Below are positions 14,846 to 24,260 of a stretch of DNA of 24,260 bases, piece after piece. The notes beneath the pieces were generated by a model. That model had not been told where the DNA came from and did no database searches. It saw nothing but the letters and a program-made list of their open reading frames with translations. Source of the stretch: a phage; the NCBI GenBank assembly GCA_018175035.1, contig GCA_018175035.1_4099.4. One strand, given 5' to 3'. Position numbers and translations under genes: made by a program. The stretch's first letter is position 1. Every line of letters begins with the position of its first letter.

Positions 14846-15376
14846 TTATTCAAGTATAGTAATTTCAATTAAACGAATTTCGATAAACTCGTTTTCAGTT
14901 TCCCATGACGTGCCAAATTTCTTTTCAAGTTCAGATTTCACATCACTTTTAAATTTTCCCATAGTATTAGGAATAATTTGTTTGGTTAATTTGTCATAAC
15001 CACAATAAAACATAGGTTTCTCCCTTCGAGATATTAGCTGAACAAAATCTTTTGGATATGCAGGTATGTTATGCATCACTTCATGAATACACTCAGTACT
15101 TGAATCTTGTACTTTGTACATTACATTAAGTTTACCTCTGAAATTTGCGGTCATATCAACAATAGTTCCTTTACCCGATTTAAGTAAAGTTCCATTCTTT
15201 GAATGAGAGCAATAAAATACCTCATCACCAATATTAGGATAATACAAATTAAATTCTAATTCAGATTTTACAGCCAGCCGTTTGAAACTTTCTGTACGTT
15301 TTATATAAGTTTGGTGTTTGTTTATGTTCAAAAGAATATATCTCGTAGTAAGTGTGATATAACTGGCATAGTCCAT
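14846..15376 (-). CDS. hypothetical protein (start overlaps the methyltransferase 3' end by 49 nt)
   Basis: Track ORF with ATG start; no alternative internal ATG nearby. Confidence 0.55.
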   Translation of the reverse strand: MDYASYITLTTRYILLNINKHQTYIKRTESFKRLAVKSELEFNLYYPNIGDEVFYCSHSKNGTLLKSGKGTIVDMTANFRGKLNVMYKVQDSSTECIHEVMHNIPAYPKDFVQLISRREKPMFYCGYDKLTKQIIPNTMGKFKSDVKSELEKKFGTSWETENEFIEIRLIEITILE

Positions 15377-17217
15377 CCATTCCCAAGCATTTTGTATGCT
15401 TGTGTTGAACTACTAACTTTGAAGTAGTTTACATCAATTCCTTGCAACATGCAACACTCTTGTACTGTTAAATGACGATAGTCCACATTTCGCTTACCAT
15501 GTTCAATAAGGAAATCCCTATCGATATCAGGTTCTTTGAAAACAATTTGTCTTCTTGATTTATTAAAGTACTGGTTACAATCACCACCCTTAAAATAGTT
15601 AGCATCTATACAGTACGAAGCGGTTCTGTCAGTGTACCAACCATCTTCAATAATATCTTGAAGTTTAGGTGCATTTGATAATGCAGGTGGTATAAAAAGT
15701 TTATCAGTACTGTACCAGTAATATCTCTGCCTGAAGTGAGGCGTATAATGCTGGGAATTTATCAGTACTGGTGTCATCTCAAGAACACTATTAATGTATT
15801 GCTTGAAATCTTCTTTCATCTTAACATTCTCAAAGAGAACTTTCAAGTTAGGATTTAAACTTTTTATGTGTTGGTAGATATCAACCATCGTGTGAAACAA
15901 CATTCCACGTGGGTCATTTATACCACCCTGTTTACCAGCAACTGACCATGCTTGACAATTGTGAACAACTATATTATTTGCAGTGTACGTGTTATCAACA
16001 GCAACTTCAAAATTATATACAGTTTTCCATTCTCCAGTATGAGTGCTAGTTTTTACACCTTTAACCCACGAATAATTTTTGTCATAAAAAGCTTCCTCTT
16101 TTTTCGGTTGGTCTTTTTTATATGACAAAACATAATAAGGTTTTTGGTTAACAACTCGATTTTCAATAACTTTGGTATTCTCTGGTTGAGTATAGCTTAT
16201 ATTGGAATGCCTTCCATATACGTTCATTATCAATTGTTGAATACCCAATACACAGTTTATTGATGTTGTAGTGAATTTATAACATCCACTATCAATATGT
16301 CCATCAGCGTCAAAGTAACCATCAAGAAATGCTTTTTGGTTTTTTATGCATTCCGTGAATAGTTCTGGGTGTACTTGTTTGTTAGAAGCACCCTTTCCCA
16401 TTTGTTCACAAAATTCAACCAGATCTTTTGAACATATATAAAATTTATATGAAGTTCTTTCTTTAACATAATTATATTTCATATTCATACCATCAAAACA
16501 TGAAACTAATTCATTAAATTCGTCATGTGCACAACAGATGAAAACTCTATATTGGTAACTATTGGTTCTATTGTTACGTTTTACTTTATATGTCCATCCA
16601 TCACCCATAAAGCGACCCATAAAATACCAGAATTTTTCATCTTTCGTTGATTTGTTAGATTCAACTGATTTAACATTACACAGAAAATGGTCATATGTCA
16701 AATCATGTGCCTCTACCCATTCTGGTTCAGAAAAATGACGTTCATATTGTCTAATGTTGTTATTCCACATAGACGTCATTTTTCTTGAATAAAAGGGATG
16801 ATTATCGGTACATTCAATTGGAAGGTGACCTTGACCTGTAATAATACGAGTGGGAGCATTTTTAACACCAGTACTCAAAACTGGATGATATTTACCAGTA
16901 TGTGTCAGTACCATGTCACCAACTTGAATGTCTTTTATATCTTTATGACCTTTGTCTGTCATAATCATGGTTCCTGCTGGGAAGCATGGAAATCCACCCA
17001 TTAATAAATCTATTTTATCCCACTCAATATCCCATTCTCTCCATTTAGTTACATCACCCAATTGGGTGATATCAGGAAAGTTAGCTTGAGATTCAGCTAT
17101 TGCGTACTTGTCAATTTCGGATGAATAATATTTTTCAACAGGGATACCAGCATCTTTTAATGCCATGTATCCAACACTCATCCCATTAAAAAGAGATAGT
17201 ACTCGGATAGGTTTCAT
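15328..17217 (-). CDS. DNA (cytosine-5)-methyltransferase precursor interrupted by an intein
   Basis: Motif I LSLFNGMSVG; GGFP (res 74-77) then, after 343 aa, CQAWSVAGKQGG, which rejoins to the PCQ motif; motif VI LFENV; C-terminal LTVQECCMLQG and LGNGWTMPVISHL. ATG start, SD AAAGGA. Predicted spliced extein about 286 aa. Confidence 0.85.
   Translation of the reverse strand: MKPIRVLSLFNGMSVGYMALKDAGIPVEKYYSSEIDKYAIAESQANFPDITQLGDVTKWREWDIEWDKIDLLMGGFPCFPAGTMIMTDKGHKDIKDIQVGDMVLTHTGKYHPVLSTGVKNAPTRIITGQGHLPIECTDNHPFYSRKMTSMWNNNIRQYERHFSEPEWVEAHDLTYDHFLCNVKSVESNKSTKDEKFWYFMGRFMGDGWTYKVKRNNRTNSYQYRVFICCAHDEFNELVSCFDGMNMKYNYVKERTSYKFYICSKDLVEFCEQMGKGASNKQVHPELFTECIKNQKAFLDGYFDADGHIDSGCYKFTTTSINCVLGIQQLIMNVYGRHSNISYTQPENTKVIENRVVNQKPYYVLSYKKDQPKKEEAFYDKNYSWVKGVKTSTHTGEWKTVYNFEVAVDNTYTANNIVVHNCQAWSVAGKQGGINDPRGMLFHTMVDIYQHIKSLNPNLKVLFENVKMKEDFKQYINSVLEMTPVLINSQHYTPHFRQRYYWYSTDKLFIPPALSNAPKLQDIIEDGWYTDRTASYCIDANYFKGGDCNQYFNKSRRQIVFKEPDIDRDFLIEHGKRNVDYRHLTVQECCMLQGIDVNYFKVSSSTQAYKMLGNGWTMPVISHLLRDIFF
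15958..16986 (-). mobile_element. Intein (343 aa) with LAGLIDADG homing-endonuclease motifs, inserted before the catalytic Cys of the PCQ motif
   Basis: N-terminal block CFPAGTMIMTDKG...; C-terminal ...NNIVVHN followed by +1 Cys; internal FMGRFMGDGW and KAFLDGYFDADGHI. Codon boundaries checked against the nucleotide sequence (TGC at 16986-16984, AAT at 15960-15958, TGT +1 at 15957-15955). Confidence 0.8.
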
Positions 17218-19986: not shown

Positions 19987-20015
19987 ATTGTAGGATAAAC
20001 CCACAATAATGTCAA
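19987..20015 (-). promoter_or_regulatory. sigma70-like promoter TTGACA-N17-TACAAT
   Basis: Minus strand: TTGACA TTATTGTGGGTTTATCC TACAAT; the TGA within TTGACA is the stop codon of gene 20012..20407; upstream of gene 19546..19956. Confidence 0.55.
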
Positions 20016-20407
20016 GATGTAAAATAATTATACCAGTAATATAGTTCTTTTAATTCTTCAGTACTGAACAATACTTCTTCTATTGTAGATTGTTGAAAGT
20101 GATATTCATCATTTAGATACATAGAAATATTACTATATACTTTCCTATTGTATTGACATAAAAAAGAAGTTTTTTGATTAATGTATTCCGTAAATGTTAA
20201 TTTATCTAACTCAATATCGAATGATAATTTAATAATATGACTATTATCATTTACATACATTAGTTTCTTTGAAAAATGATCAATTGTAATATATTCTTTA
20301 TGAGAGAACTGAAATATATTATTAAATTTATTACCATTTGTGCTTCTAAATTTTTCAAGGTAATAAGAAAGTGGTTTAATTATTGAAGTTCCAATATTGT
20401 TCTTCAT
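20012..20407 (-). CDS. hypothetical protein, FQxST-motif family
   Basis: Track ORF, ATG start, SD GAGGA; NDEYHFQQSTIEEV. Confidence 0.7.
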   Translation of the reverse strand: MKNNIGTSIIKPLSYYLEKFRSTNGNKFNNIFQFSHKEYITIDHFSKKLMYVNDNSHIIKLSFDIELDKLTFTEYINQKTSFLCQYNRKVYSNISMYLNDEYHFQQSTIEEVLFSTEELKELYYWYNYFTS

Positions 20408-20424
20408 ATATCCTCAATTTTAGA

Positions 20425-20451
20425 TAAGAAAAATGCCCCGATCTTCGGGGC
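20425..20451 (-). terminator. rho-independent terminator (GC-rich 6-bp stem GCCCCG/CGGGGC, U-rich tail)
   Basis: Minus strand: GCCCCGAAGAUCGGGGC then AUUUUUCU; between gene 20568..21119 and gene 20012..20407. Confidence 0.65.
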
Positions 20452-20567
20452 AGTACTAAAATGATTTTGTACCAAAAGGGGAATAAGAACAAAATGAAAA
20501 TATAATAACGCATCATTATTATGTAAGGGAGGAAAGTAACATGATATGTTAACCATTTCTGGTATAT

Positions 20568-21119
20568 TTATTTATCATTTAATTCTTTAAGTTGGGTTTG
20601 TATATCTTTAGTTATATTTCGAATTTTCTTAAAGCAATAAACACTATCGTCCAATTCGATTTTAAGTTCATGTGTAAATGCATACAGAAGTTCAGCAAAT
20701 ACTAAATCTTGACGCATCCAGTTTCCATCTTTATATAAAGTCATTACACAATATGGGCATTCACTATTAGAAGTTTGCTTTCCAATAAAAACACTTTGAA
20801 TTGATTCATGCTTAAAGCCAATAAAACTTTCATTTATTTTTTTAATTTCAGTACTGATATCGAATTTAGCACTGGTGTTGATTGCAAAAATTTTATTTCC
20901 ACTTTCATCAGTATTGATGTTGAGTTCAATATCACTACCTAGTTTACGTACTGCTAGAGTATAAAGAAGTAATTCATACATGTCGTAACTTGTTACATTA
21001 CCATTTGGTGCAATTACATCAACACTAACACCGTGCATTTTTACTTCTGTATTAAATCCATCTTTATCAGAAAGAAAATCAGTGATTTGCTTTGTAAGGA
21101 TTTTAATTTGGTCTATCAT
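20568..21119 (-). CDS. hypothetical protein
   Basis: Track ORF, ATG start, SD AAGGAAA. Confidence 0.7.
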   Translation of the reverse strand: MIDQIKILTKQITDFLSDKDGFNTEVKMHGVSVDVIAPNGNVTSYDMYELLLYTLAVRKLGSDIELNINTDESGNKIFAINTSAKFDISTEIKKINESFIGFKHESIQSVFIGKQTSNSECPYCVMTLYKDGNWMRQDLVFAELLYAFTHELKIELDDSVYCFKKIRNITKDIQTQLKELNDK

Positions 21120-21140
21120 ATTTCATTTCCTTATGTGATA

Positions 21141-21164
21141 AAAGCCTCCATGATGGAGGCTTTT
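21141..21164 (-). terminator. rho-independent terminator-like hairpin (AGCCUCCA-UGA-UGGAGGCU, flanked by A/U tracts)
   Basis: 8-10 bp perfect stem read directly; between gene 21173..21601 and the SD of gene 20568..21119. Confidence 0.55.
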
Positions 21165-21172
21165 ATATTTAC

Positions 21173-21601
21173 TTAGAGAGATTCTTCGTATTCAGCAACA
21201 ATCTCAACCATTTCATTAATGAACTTGATGTGAGAATGTGTCACTGTACGGAAGTCGTAAACAAGTGACTGTTGGAAAAATACATCTTCATCAAGAGAAC
21301 CATCAAAGTTCAAATCAATGTTTTCATCGTCATTGCTTGGTGCAACTTTAATATTCAGAAGATTTTCATCAACTGCAAGTTTTACAACACAACCCAGTGC
21401 AATGGCAAGAACATATGCTGGTTTCTTAGCTTTTTCATTACGGAATGGTGCACGTAGAGCACAAAAAGTACTGCTAATCTCATCATTTGGTTCTTTGTAT
21501 TTAACATTGACCATTAGTTCTTCGATTTTGACGCTCTCAATAACACGACCAGTTTCTGGAGCGAAGAAAGAATGTTCACGGATAGTTTGTTCGATATTCA
21601 T
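21173..21601 (-). CDS. hypothetical protein, FQxST-motif family
   Basis: Track ORF, ATG start, SD AAGGAA; DEDVFFQQSLVYDF. Confidence 0.7.
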   Translation of the reverse strand: MNIEQTIREHSFFAPETGRVIESVKIEELMVNVKYKEPNDEISSTFCALRAPFRNEKAKKPAYVLAIALGCVVKLAVDENLLNIKVAPSNDDENIDLNFDGSLDEDVFFQQSLVYDFRTVTHSHIKFINEMVEIVAEYEESL

Positions 21602-21604
21602 ATA

Positions 21605-21799
21605 TTATTCCTTATTTAGATTGCTAAAAATACGAAGATTGCGGTTTGCTTTAAACTGTTTCAAATCACCAAATCTATCATCAACGATGAAAGTTGCTGA
21701 TTTCTTTGACTGACATATTGTACAAATCAACATACCTTGTATTGTATACTCAGTTGAGCAATTTGTACAGTACTTTTTTTCATAAAGTTCAGTACTCAT
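21605..21799 (-). CDS. small Cys-rich (zinc-ribbon-like) protein
   Basis: Track ORF, ATG start; CxxC ... CxxC (YCTNCS ... ICTICQ). Confidence 0.6.
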   Translation of the reverse strand: MSTELYEKKYCTNCSTEYTIQGMLICTICQSKKSATFIVDDRFGDLKQFKANRNLRIFSNLNKE

Positions 21800-22131
21800 A
21801 AAACCTTCACATCAGTACGTTTTTCTCTTTGTTCTTTTTTAACCTCATCAGTTCTAGTATCTTCTAATTGTAACACAACTTCTTTTAGAATGTCAACATC
21901 AATTGTTGCTTCTACATATTGATAGTCGTTTACACCAAAAACATACTTTACTGCAACCCATACACGGTTATACCATTTTAAAAAAGGATTTAAACGCATA
22001 CTTATCAGACATTGACCAAGTTTATCATCTCCATATTCCTCTGTCAAGTCAAATTGTGCAATGTGAACGCAATGCTCCATTTTATCGCCACAAGAACAAC
22101 GTAAAATATACTCTTTACTATCTTCACTCAT
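21796..22131 (-). CDS. hypothetical protein
   Basis: Track ORF, ATG start, ATGA coupling on both sides. Confidence 0.65.
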   Translation of the reverse strand: MSEDSKEYILRCSCGDKMEHCVHIAQFDLTEEYGDDKLGQCLISMRLNPFLKWYNRVWVAVKYVFGVNDYQYVEATIDVDILKEVVLQLEDTRTDEVKKEQREKRTDVKVL

Positions 22132-22550
22132 ACTGGATAAGCCTTTAAAAATTGTTTAAGAACTCCAAACTTAGATGAATCGTAATCGTATTGATAGTTA
22201 AGCTCTCGCTTATCATTCATACGATACACCATATGAAAATTTGGATAACCAATTCTAACAGGTTTTTTAGGATTAGCAAGTAAAATTGCCCATTCTTTTA
22301 CAGGAAATACGTTTTCAGACAGCATTTTGATATTTGTTTCAAAATACTTCATGGCTTGCTTTCCGTGCTTGTAATCTTCTTCACTAATCTCTTGACAATC
22401 AATTCTATGTGTTTCGGTATCTAACACCCATTGTTGATCTTCGGTATATAAATCAATTACATCATCAATAGTATAACTATCAGGTAAATCATAAAATACC
22501 CAATGAGATAAACCAGAACTTACACTAATTCGAATTTTAAAGAACTTCAT
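22128..22550 (-). CDS. hypothetical protein
   Basis: Track ORF, ATG start. Confidence 0.7.
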   Translation of the reverse strand: MKFFKIRISVSSGLSHWVFYDLPDSYTIDDVIDLYTEDQQWVLDTETHRIDCQEISEEDYKHGKQAMKYFETNIKMLSENVFPVKEWAILLANPKKPVRIGYPNFHMVYRMNDKRELNYQYDYDSSKFGVLKQFLKAYPV

Positions 22551-22708
22551 TCTTTATCACCTTTTACATAATTATAACACACGACACAGTGAATTACAAG
22601 AAGAATTATTTCCACAATATTAAGAGACAATACATGACTCTGCGGTGTGAAAAGTGCCAATAACAACATTATAGCAGGTATTGTGAATATTTTCCAAGTT
22701 TTTTTCAT
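22547..22708 (-). CDS. small membrane protein (start moved to the internal ATG with SD)
   Basis: Track ORF 22547..22852 overlaps gene 22710..22940 by 143 nt in another frame; the internal ATG at 22708 (MKKTWKIFTIPAIMLLLALF...) is preceded by AAGGA plus 5 nt. Confidence 0.5.
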   Translation of the reverse strand: MKKTWKIFTIPAIMLLLALFTPQSHVLSLNIVEIILLVIHCVVCYNYVKGDKE

Positions 22709-22709
22709 T

Positions 22710-22940
22710 TTATTCCTTTGTATATGCATATGGTAAAAATAAAACCTCTGCATTAGGAATGCATTGTGCCAATCCTTCAACAATAGATTTGTTTTTATTA
22801 CATTGCCAAACTTTAGTAATTTTATGTCTAAATACTTTTTTATCAACGACAATCCAGTACATGTCCATTTTAACAGTACTGTTATCAGATGGTGTTAGTA
22901 AAGTATCGATGTCATATGTATCAAAGATTTTGTCGTTCAT
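22710..22940 (-). CDS. hypothetical protein
   Basis: Track ORF, ATG start, SD AGGAG plus 5 nt. Confidence 0.65.
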   Translation of the reverse strand: MNDKIFDTYDIDTLLTPSDNSTVKMDMYWIVVDKKVFRHKITKVWQCNKNKSIVEGLAQCIPNAEVLFLPYAYTKE

Positions 22941-23202
22941 ATAATCTCCTAATAAAATATTCTCGATTCTCTCTTATATACCCAGATACACAGTTAGTTG
23001 TGGCTTGGTTAGTGAATGAAATCTCACTATTGGACACGCCATTTGCATCACACAAAGGACATATTCCCATGTACTTGGGGGTCGGGTAGGTGTCCAATTT
23101 GTATTTTCCATTACATACCATGTACTGCTGTGGCAATACATCTAATATTATTTCATATTCTTCATCAAACACCTTGAAGCATACCCAACATTTACCCATC
23201 AT
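22921..23202 (-). CDS. small Cys-rich zinc-binding-like protein
   Basis: Track ORF, ATG start; CWVCF ... CPLCD. Confidence 0.6.
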   Translation of the reverse strand: MMGKCWVCFKVFDEEYEIILDVLPQQYMVCNGKYKLDTYPTPKYMGICPLCDANGVSNSEISFTNQATTNCVSGYIRENREYFIRRLYERQNL

Positions 23203-23683
23203 AGTTTTCCTTTAACACAGTTCTTATATATTCGAATGTTTTAACAAACCAATCATGTTCGTCGGATACATCTACAACTTTACCACCATATACATAGTAA
23301 TGGTAAAAAGGCAACTTGCTTTTTCTTAATCTTTCGGCTAACTCTGGATTTTGAATTATTTTAGCACAAATAGCATCTTGAATAATAGAAATACAATCAT
23401 CCGTCATTTCAATTCGATCATGCATATATTTGTTAGCGGCTGCTTTTGCTGCTGCACCAGATACTTTTCTAAGGTCATCATGTTTTTGCCCAGTTAAAAA
23501 CCAAAAGTAAAATGTTTCAACTGAAGGGAACCAACCATATGGTTCAAGTGTGAAGCTATGCGAAGAAAAGTTAGATAGATCTCTACCTAACTTCGTTCTG
23601 GCTTTACTATAAATGTTAATATGTCGGTATCCATCATCAGTAGGGTCAATGAAGTTAAATGACTCTTCTGGGAATTCAAACAT
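23192..23683 (-). CDS. NADAR (YbiA/DUF1768-like) domain protein, candidate ADP-ribosyl hydrolase
   Basis: Pattern I.IYS...LSNFS...F.L..YGWFPSVETFYFWFLTGQK...RKVSGAAAKAAANK resembles the NADAR/YbiA signature (FSNF ... W.[ST].E..[YF] ... R.VS....A) as I recall it; ATG start. Assignment is by motif recall, not by search. Confidence 0.5.
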   Translation of the reverse strand: MFEFPEESFNFIDPTDDGYRHINIYSKARTKLGRDLSNFSSHSFTLEPYGWFPSVETFYFWFLTGQKHDDLRKVSGAAAKAAANKYMHDRIEMTDDCISIIQDAICAKIIQNPELAERLRKSKLPFYHYYVYGGKVVDVSDEHDWFVKTFEYIRTVLKENYDG

Positions 23684-23685
23684 AA

Positions 23686-24039
23686 TTATTCTTCTTCTCC
23701 TGAAGGTGTTCCACGTAGTTTATCAAAATCAACCCAAATACCATGCTGGTTTTTAAATCGACATTTCTCATAGTACCAACTATAGTCTGTTTCAACACCT
23801 TGTGAAATAGAACGCACACTACAATCATACATATTATATAAATGTTCCCTGACAATATATGTATTAATCAGTACAACGAATAATACAATAATACCACAGA
23901 TTTTAGGATGGTCCATAATCAAGTCAAGTACTGAACTAGTTTCAGAACTATCAATCTTACTTCTACAAATAGCAACAATTTTAAGAACAGCGAATGATAC
24001 CAGTAATGAAATTACAATAACACTTAAATAAATTAGCAT
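23686..24039 (-). CDS. hypothetical membrane protein (two hydrophobic segments)
   Basis: Track ORF, ATG start, SD GGAG plus 8 nt. Confidence 0.65.
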   Translation of the reverse strand: MLIYLSVIVISLLVSFAVLKIVAICRSKIDSSETSSVLDLIMDHPKICGIIVLFVVLINTYIVREHLYNMYDCSVRSISQGVETDYSWYYEKCRFKNQHGIWVDFDKLRGTPSGEEE

Positions 24040-24042
24040 AAA

Positions 24043-24183
24043 TTACACTCCTACACCAAAACGTAAAATAATATTATTAACAAACACTAAATCAAAAGGT
24101 GACTTTGGTTCAGATACTGAGTACTGAAATGATTCTGCTGCGAAATTTTCTCTATTATACCATGTTTCAGAATTTATTAGCAT
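24043..24183 (-). CDS. small hypothetical protein (46 aa), not in the track
   Basis: Manual translation: MLINSETWYNRENFAAESFQYSVSEPKSPFDLVFVNNIILRFGVGV; GGTGA upstream of the ATG; stop 3 nt before the next ATG. Confidence 0.35.
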   Translation of the reverse strand: MLINSETWYNRENFAAESFQYSVSEPKSPFDLVFVNNIILRFGVGV

Positions 24184-24260
24184 TTTTTTATCACCAATCG
24201 TCACTGAATGTAATGGAACATTTGAAGAAGAATTTATTGAATATGCATTAAGATTACCGT

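Follow-up and report, generated by a model that had tools for sequence, protein, structure and literature searches.

DNA ADP-ribosylation by DarTG systems and signalling through NAD-derived molecules are major bacterial anti-phage strategies. NADAR proteins strip ADP-ribose from guanine and their phage copies counter DarTG1 (PMC11543638, PMC11825919), as the initial annotation of the locus described below had correctly stated. That phage NADARs, termed AdfN, erase the marks set by DarT1 was shown only recently. T4 AdfN, AdfN-Bas32 and AdfN-Bas60 neutralise DarT1, and the four NADAR families assayed to date each hydrolyse guanine-linked ADP-ribose (G-ADPr) on DNA in vitro. To illustrate the NADAR domain of jumbo phages, Iyer et al. 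(2021) named QAY00367.1 from an Asteriusvirus; they proposed that the domain degrades soluble ADP-ribose signals. Here we analysed a stretch of phage DNA of 24,260 nucleotides (GCA_018175035.1, contig GCA_018175035.1_4099.4; the whole stretch is called the window), in which positions 23192 to 23683 on the minus strand encode a protein of 163 amino acids. It is 94% identical to QAY00367.1 over 162 amino acids and falls into the same 90%-identity cluster. Thus, the superfamily assignment has already been published, yet databases do not reflect it; in that paper it is a one-line computational statement without clade analysis, active-site comparison or experiment. Four points are new. The protein is part of a very large, database-invisible clade which, judged from alignments, appears to be the sister of AdfN. 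In this clade the glutamate and the phage-type histidine are invariant and the canonical lysine is systematically absent. The gene is an orphan and its orthologue is the sole NADAR detected in the genome of Asteriusvirus JP4. Finally, the NADARs with proven activity against DarT1 belong to other clades. The best explanation as a whole, held with moderate confidence, is a standalone intracellular ADP-ribosyl hydrolase of the NADAR superfamily that serves counter-defence in the manner of AdfN.

The open reading frame (ORF) runs from ATG to TAA and exactly fills the interval on the minus strand; numerous stop codons interrupt the frame on the plus strand. The initial annotation had reported the ORF without its strand and had quoted several motifs, all of which were found: INIYS (residues 22-26), LSNFS (36-40), GWFPSVETFYF (50-60) and RKVSGAAAKAAANK (72-85). 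These are not chance resemblances: they occupy invariant or near-invariant columns in alignments of 27 and of 85 homologues. The phage-centred family to which they belong, PHROG 652/11222, is called here the HYY clade.

Is the protein a NADAR? The Pfam NADAR profile, to which the initial annotation had tied its YbiA-like assignment, remained silent: PF08719 did not match even at E<=10 and gave weak matches in five of 27 relatives, the best at 0.024. This is a limit of model sensitivity, not a biological criterion. The Pfam profile of the T4 gp30.3 family, PF08010 (gathering score 36 bits), likewise did not match the 163-residue protein; relatives reached it only below threshold, at best with 27 bits (4.4e-6). 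A self-built gp30.3 hidden Markov model (HMM) at E<=10 found nothing in the window or the JP4 genome, and a single-sequence phmmer search of the PDB had no match. The fold was nevertheless strongly supported by profiles. When the 27-homologue profile was run against all PDB sequences at E<=10, exactly two chains were retrieved, 8BAU (1.1e-4), a Phytophthora NADAR, and 2B3W (4.8e-4), E. coli YbiA. Both are NADARs. Profile-profile comparisons by hhalign used 85 family members, 108 gp30.3 (PF08010) and 111 YbiA (PF08719) proteins. The family matched gp30.3 with 97.9% (E 5.9e-13) over 129 columns, i.e. nearly full length, and YbiA with 96.2% (E 2.7e-9). For calibration, the two accepted NADAR groups gp30.3 and YbiA matched each other with 97.5% (E 6.6e-12). 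Structure comparison, which had been suggested at the outset, also pointed to the YbiA/NADAR fold; the predicted model has a strand at 129-132 and a helix at 144-162. Because the PDB profile search, the profile-profile scores, the structure comparison and the domain fusions described below are independent lines, NADAR fold and superfamily membership are virtually certain.

Active-site residues were mapped by profile alignments onto the ADP-ribose contacts of PnNADAR (E43, K50, R79, W89, R93, E125, D130, W133; PMC11543638). The gene and the mapped elements, all on the minus strand, are:

23192..23683, minus strand: complete gene for the NADAR-fold protein (163 amino acids), orthologue of phAPEC6 gp139c, JP4 CDS0057 and QAY00367.1
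23603..23635, minus strand: N-terminal strand motif, codons D17-K27 (DGYRHINIYSK); 'INxYS' resembles 'IINFYS' of YbiA in profile alignments
23564..23578, minus strand: 'LSNF' substrate-cleft motif, codons L36-S40 (LSNFS); L36 in 84/85, S37 in 80/85, N38 in 84/85, F39 in 81/85
23516..23518, minus strand: codon E56, counterpart of PnNADAR E43 and T4 AdfN E36 in profile alignments; invariant in 85/85
23495..23497, minus strand: codon L63, at the position of the canonical diphosphate-binding lysine (PnNADAR K50, AdfN K43, YbiA K55, C7 K95)
23429..23458, minus strand: 'G-x-x-A-K-x-x-G-R' helix, codons G76-K85 (GAAAKAAANK), aligned to AKKLGR of 8BAU
23294..23302, minus strand: 'HYY', codons H128-Y129-Y130, start of the last beta-hairpin; H128 in 85/85, Y129 and Y130 in 84/85
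23222..23251, minus strand: part of the C-terminal helix, codons W145-R154; W145 in 84/85, R154 in 71/85 (helix 144-162 in the model)

The invariant core of the family comprises D17, G18, H21, N23, Y25, S26, G33, L36, S37, N38, F39, G50, F52, E56, G76, K80, H128, Y129, Y130, W145 and R154. The LSNF motif aligns with LSNF of PnNADAR and T4 AdfN and with FSNF of YbiA. E56 corresponds to the glutamate which coordinates the distal ribose in PnNADAR and AdfN (PMC11543638, PMC11825919). In the helix that follows, G76 is present in 85/85, K80 in 84/85 and G83 in 77/85 sequences. H128 aligns by hhalign with T4 AdfN H123, a residue found in 108/108 gp30.3 sequences, and the D..WG motif is lost as it is in gp30.3. 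In phage NADARs such a histidine in the last strand takes the place of the glutamate of YbiA and the aspartate of DarG1 and BC4488. Against YbiA, H128 falls opposite H126, one residue past E125, in a register given by sequence alignment alone. Loss of the C-terminal helix inactivates RB69 AdfN (PMC11825919). E56 and H128 are the predicted catalytic residues, and D17, H21 and N23 are invariants specific to the family in the alignments.

The closest known system is T4 gp30.3/AdfN, the nearest characterised relative of the HYY clade. Both are standalone phage proteins of about 150-160 amino acids, and gp30.3 is the best profile-profile match of the HYY family. They share LSNF, the glutamate (E36/E56), the G-x-x-A-K helix, the last-strand histidine (H123/H128), the lack of D..WG and the C-terminal helix. 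They differ in that AdfN K43 is replaced by Leu, Gly or Ser in the HYY family, which has its own invariants D17, H21, N23, Y129, Y130 and W145 and occurs in jumbo phages, Ackermannviridae and Vibrio and Erwinia phages, not in T4-like phages. The canonical PF08719 NADARs, i.e. YbiA (2B3W), 8BAU, the Geobacter DarG1-NADAR (8BAT) and AdfN-Bas60, are about 17% identical to the 163-residue protein; they carry Glu or Asp in place of the last-strand histidine and have K50, W89, R93, D130 and W133 equivalents which the HYY family lacks. As a DELTA-BLAST search seeded with AdfN could in principle reach the HYY clade, Bas60 (MZ501100.1) was checked directly. Its protein bas60_0111 matches PF08719 at 3.5e-36, has all of the E..K, LGR, W..R and E..D motifs of a canonical NADAR and scored only 8.8 bits on the HYY family HMM. 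Its membership in the HYY clade was rejected. Bas60 also encodes, at 59888-61454, a Macro-domain protein (2e-7) that overlaps a ComF-like PRTase_3 phosphoribosyltransferase (2.9e-41), a further pair related to ADP-ribose and phosphoribosyl pyrophosphate, alongside the validated NADAR AdfN-Bas60 of this phage. Analogous orphan, antitoxin-like hydrolases which erase DNA ADP-ribosylation exist in jumbo phages, namely the DarG2-like macrodomain anti-DarT2 factors of chimalliviruses (PMC13309987). Their Macro fold is unrelated to NADAR and they are specific for thymine-ADPr.

How would such a protein operate in the infected cell? It would be expressed together with small accessory genes that are closely spaced and point in the same direction, and would bind an ADP-ribosyl adduct in the cleft formed by LSNF, E56 and H128. 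The N-glycosidic bond between C1'' of ADP-ribose and the acceptor would be hydrolysed and free ADP-ribose released. As acceptor, the most likely single candidate is the N2 of guanine in phage DNA that DarT1-type or pierisin-like ADP-ribosyltransferases (ARTs) have modified; in erasing such marks the enzyme would act in counter-defence as AdfN does. The site of action was addressed through the phAPEC6 virion. Its list of 62 virion proteins does not contain gp139c; therefore packaging was rejected for this dataset and the protein, once expressed, most likely works within the cell. To look for a further NADAR, all six frames of the JP4 genome (370,741 bp) were scanned with the family, gp30.3 and YbiA HMMs, a set that included no HMM specific for DarG1 or BC4488; only the orthologue was found. 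Pairing with an ART in a toxin-antitoxin arrangement was rejected: cellular genomes gave only 11 loci of the family, and no ART was among the best 25 of 48 Pfam families in 148 neighbour or fusion ORFs from 91 loci. In the window neighbourhood there is no ART either and the gene does not lie next to DarT1. Taken together, the G-ADPr activity of tested NADARs, the relationship to AdfN, the single copy in JP4 and the absence from the virion favour an ADP-ribosyl N-glycohydrolase that serves counter-defence. The protein is probably a catalytically active ADP-ribosyl glycohydrolase. DarT1-type G-ADPr DNA is the leading single hypothesis for the physiological substrate, yet a tentative one to which we give less than an even chance. 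An anti-DarT role is a reasonable hypothesis, not a finding.

Several observations weigh against a counter-defence enzyme of the AdfN type. The lysine seven residues after the glutamate is missing: column 63 of the 85 sequences contains L31, G16, S14, A5, T4 and K4, whereas 104/108 gp30.3 and 111/111 YbiA sequences have Lys at this position. This lysine binds the diphosphate, and its mutation impairs G-ADPr hydrolysis in the E. coli C7 NADAR and causes a partial loss in AdfN. The 'GR' arginine (PnNADAR R79) is Arg or Lys in 61/85 (position 84: R43/K18/N4), but the Asteriusvirus subclade has A83-N84. Alignable equivalents of the W89/R93 pair and of the D130..W133-G motif of PnNADAR are absent from the family. 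The validated phage AdfNs are, by their sequences, of gp30.3 type or canonical PF08719 type, and they lie in other clades. Pfam and NCBIfam searches of the 163-residue protein at E<=10 and a PADLOC search returned no match, and a literature search found no experimentally characterised member of the HYY clade. Neither an ART nor DarT was among the best 25 of 48 Pfam families in 148 neighbour or fusion ORFs from 91 loci. Finally, a metagenomic polyvalent protein of 1,415 amino acids, P0097, combines a canonical PF08719 NADAR (10-143), the family domain (550-698) and DUF4326 (1185-1274), which suggests that these two NADAR-type modules are not redundant.

The losses around the phosphates raise the question whether the fold is catalytically dead and only binds, as a sponge or shield, ADP-ribose, ADP-ribosylated DNA or an ART toxin. 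The conserved lysine, the W/R pair and the D..WG motif are all gone and other anti-DarT factors, AdfA and AdfB, do work by binding DarT. However, the polar residues E56, H128, D17, H21 and N23 are invariant across 85 diverse sequences, as is typical of an active site, and the His-type gp30.3 family, which likewise lacks D..WG, is catalytically active. We consider a dead binder most improbable. The near-invariant basic residues K27, R34, K80 and K108 could take over phosphate binding. The missing lysine remains a clear active-site difference and could mean a new specificity. Possibly, the Lys-less HYY clade forms a NADAR branch with a function of its own, a remodelled phosphate site and a target other than the DarT1 guanine adduct, although on balance we hold this to be rather unlikely. 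An immune signal or toxin that is soluble and derived from NAD could then be the target, or else ADP-ribose attached to another base or to RNA.

The domain fusions bear on this question. Among 84 multidomain relatives DUF4326 was present in 25, YAcAr-SLOG in 18, Macro in six and DUF488-N3a in six. Besides P0097, explicit architectures include Macro-DUF4326-[family], [family]-SLOG-DUF4326, [family]-Macro and Metallophos-[family]. The family is part of the Macro/SLOG/DUF4326/NADAR fusion network, the same network that Iyer et al. described for viral NADAR domains (PMC7824862, PMC9503650). A NADAR-fold hydrolase in this network might act on soluble ADP-ribose derivatives of host immunity and not in DNA repair. 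Candidate substrates are cyclic ADP-ribose isomers of TIR/Thoeris type, ADP-ribose-1''-phosphate and other NAD-derived signals or toxins, and the enzyme would act alongside the separate SLOG, Sir2 and Nudix proteins of the phage. Exactly such a role for phage NADARs was proposed by Iyer et al. (2021, 2022), who cite the orthologue QAY00367.1 (PMC9503650). Repeated fusion to SLOG/YAcAr, Macro and DUF4326, a predicted ribose-phosphate phosphatase, is in line with it, as is the presence of Sir2, a Nudt16-like Nudix and a SLOG-like protein elsewhere in JP4. The remodelled phosphate residues (no Lys, and no GR in the Asteriusvirus subclade) fit a different ligand geometry, the arrangement of P0097 implies a division of labour, and the best 25 of the 48 neighbour families (91 loci) are devoid of an ART. 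On the other hand, cleavage of a soluble immune signal has so far been reported for none of the NADARs; all those examined by biochemistry act on ADP-ribose that is linked to a base (PMC11125620, PMC12945103), and AdfN, the nearest characterised relative, acts on DNA. Action on soluble substrates is the main rival reading; we hold it to be rather unlikely, and the AdfN-like counter-defence hydrolase is preferred.

The corresponding modules of JP4 are separate genes, whereas in other viruses NAD and ADP-ribose modules are fused to the family. At 228432-229732 JP4 has an overlapping gene pair for Sir2 (PF02146, 3.6e-20) and a Nudt16-like Nudix protein (1.3e-18). The product of 286781-287374, encoded beside thymidylate synthase, is labelled 'DprA-like' and weakly matches YAcAr-SLOG. 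A BFVD match from Erwinia phage RAY, A0A173GE06, is a family-SLOG fusion and is labelled 'DprA-like protein' in UniProt. PHROG-based labels as 'DprA-like DNA recombination-mediator' may often designate SLOG/YAcAr proteins of the NAD network instead.

The fusions argue against an N-glycosidase for ribosyl compounds other than ADP-ribose, which would cleave riboflavin intermediates like YbiA or hydrolyse (modified) nucleotides in phage nucleotide metabolism. The first activity assigned to YbiA was indeed that of an N-glycosidase on riboflavin intermediates (PMC11543638), and genes for ribonucleotide reductase, thymidylate synthase, thymidine kinase, dUTPase and IMP dehydrogenase (IMPDH)/GMP reductase are often neighbours of the family. 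But the fusion partners Macro, SLOG and DUF4326 are centred on ADP-ribose, not on riboflavin, genes of nucleotide metabolism are frequent neighbours in large phage genomes generally, and the neighbourhood in the window contains none. Such an activity is very unlikely.

The distribution of the family was examined next to its annotation. Positions 20000-24260 of the window are 99.0-99.8% identical to phAPEC6, SP27, JP4 and 121Q; the DNA is thus of an Asteriusvirus-type jumbo coliphage. The gene is 94-100% conserved in about 35 Asteriusvirus genomes. By tblastn homologues were present in 506 phage records, among them phages of Salmonella, Klebsiella and Escherichia with about 150-160 kb of DNA (for instance SJ2, 0507-KN2-1 and PH4); other carriers are the jumbo phages K64-1, Serratia BF and Xanthomonas XbC2, Erwinia Ea35-70, Vibrio phages and Proteus Myduc. 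When the family profile was searched exhaustively, 2,089 representatives of 50%-identity clusters matched at E<=1e-3, and 646 of them at E<=1e-30. Pattern-based scans located 170 loci in IMG/VR and 11 in about 185,000 species genomes; therefore the family is overwhelmingly viral. All public records of orthologues label the product 'hypothetical protein', and the only library matches of the 163-residue protein are PHROG 652 (5e-45) and PHROG 11222 (3e-31), both of 'unknown function'. The two PHROGs and the matching GenBank entries are candidates for re-annotation as 'NADAR-like'.

The carriers include many jumbo phages and Kuttervirus-type phages considered for therapy. If the clade is active on G-ADPr, its presence would help to predict phages that escape DarTG1. 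If it is inactive on G-ADPr, the clade would be a promising starting point for finding a new immune signal or adduct based on ADP-ribose. Should it be a distinct branch, an unrecognised class of anti-defence enzymes would exist in more than 500 sequenced large phages (among them Ackermannviridae and the Rak2-like, Asteriusvirus and Erwinia jumbo phages).

In JP4 an apparent direct duplication of about 20 kb with small genes was noticed. According to order and sizes in the annotation CDS0257-0321 (~123.9-142.8 kb) recur as CDS0325-0389 (~144.0-162.9 kb). This may be an assembly artefact or explain part of the larger genome size of JP4 (370.7 kb compared with 348.5 kb in 121Q).

The immediate surroundings of the gene in the window are as follows:

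23686..24039, minus strand: probable two-transmembrane membrane protein, 117 amino acids, upstream; PHROG 8041, function unassigned; transmembrane segments assigned by eye from hydrophobic stretches
22921..23202, minus strand: Zn-ribbon-like protein, 93 amino acids, CWVC...CPLC, downstream; PHROG 35738, function unassigned
21605..21799: second Zn-ribbon-like ORF, about 1.4 kb from the NADAR-like gene, not adjacent

The initial annotation had put the gene beside two small Zn-ribbon-like proteins and a membrane protein. The probable membrane protein and the 93-residue CxxC...CxxC protein do adjoin it, the second Zn-ribbon-like ORF does not. The TAA of the upstream ORF sits 2 nucleotides before the NADAR-like ATG; its product has a weak, sub-threshold match to DUF6097 (0.0087). 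The start of the 93-residue ORF, whose product had no match in a Pfam search, overlaps the NADAR-like stop by 8-11 nucleotides, which suggests translational coupling. Evidence for a functional link to either neighbour was not found. In the stretch from 19.5 to 24.26 kb there are only two terminator-like hairpins, at 21138-21166 (plus strand) and 20434-20452 (minus strand), and none follows the NADAR-like gene before about 21.1-20.4 kb. In view of this and of the close spacing and overlap, the gene is placed in the middle of a compact block of small genes that all run in one direction. A promoter scan yielded a count of 40 against 32.4 +/- 6.2 in shuffled sequence; this is not above expectation and no promoter was called. 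The first hairpin is a near-perfect 13-bp palindrome inside the intergenic gap 21119/21173, the second a GC-rich 8-bp stem with a T-run past the gene that ends at 20568. Transcription units of the accessory block may be bounded by these two hairpins.

The neighbours all belong to PHROGs of unassigned function except for one 'virion structural protein'. This is a Cys-rich protein of 111 amino acids (CSCGDKMEHC; PHROG 12660) at 21796-22131 on the minus strand, amid otherwise non-structural small genes; its JP4 orthologue carries the same label. Farther away, at 15328-17217 on the minus strand, a 629-residue ORF encodes a C-5 cytosine DNA methyltransferase (PF00145, 5e-30, in three stretches) split by an intein with Hint and LAGLIDADG homing-endonuclease domains. 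The JP4 counterpart is annotated as a 'DNA methyltransferase' of 287 amino acids and has no intein. Thus, the presence of the intein varies among near-identical Asteriusviruses.
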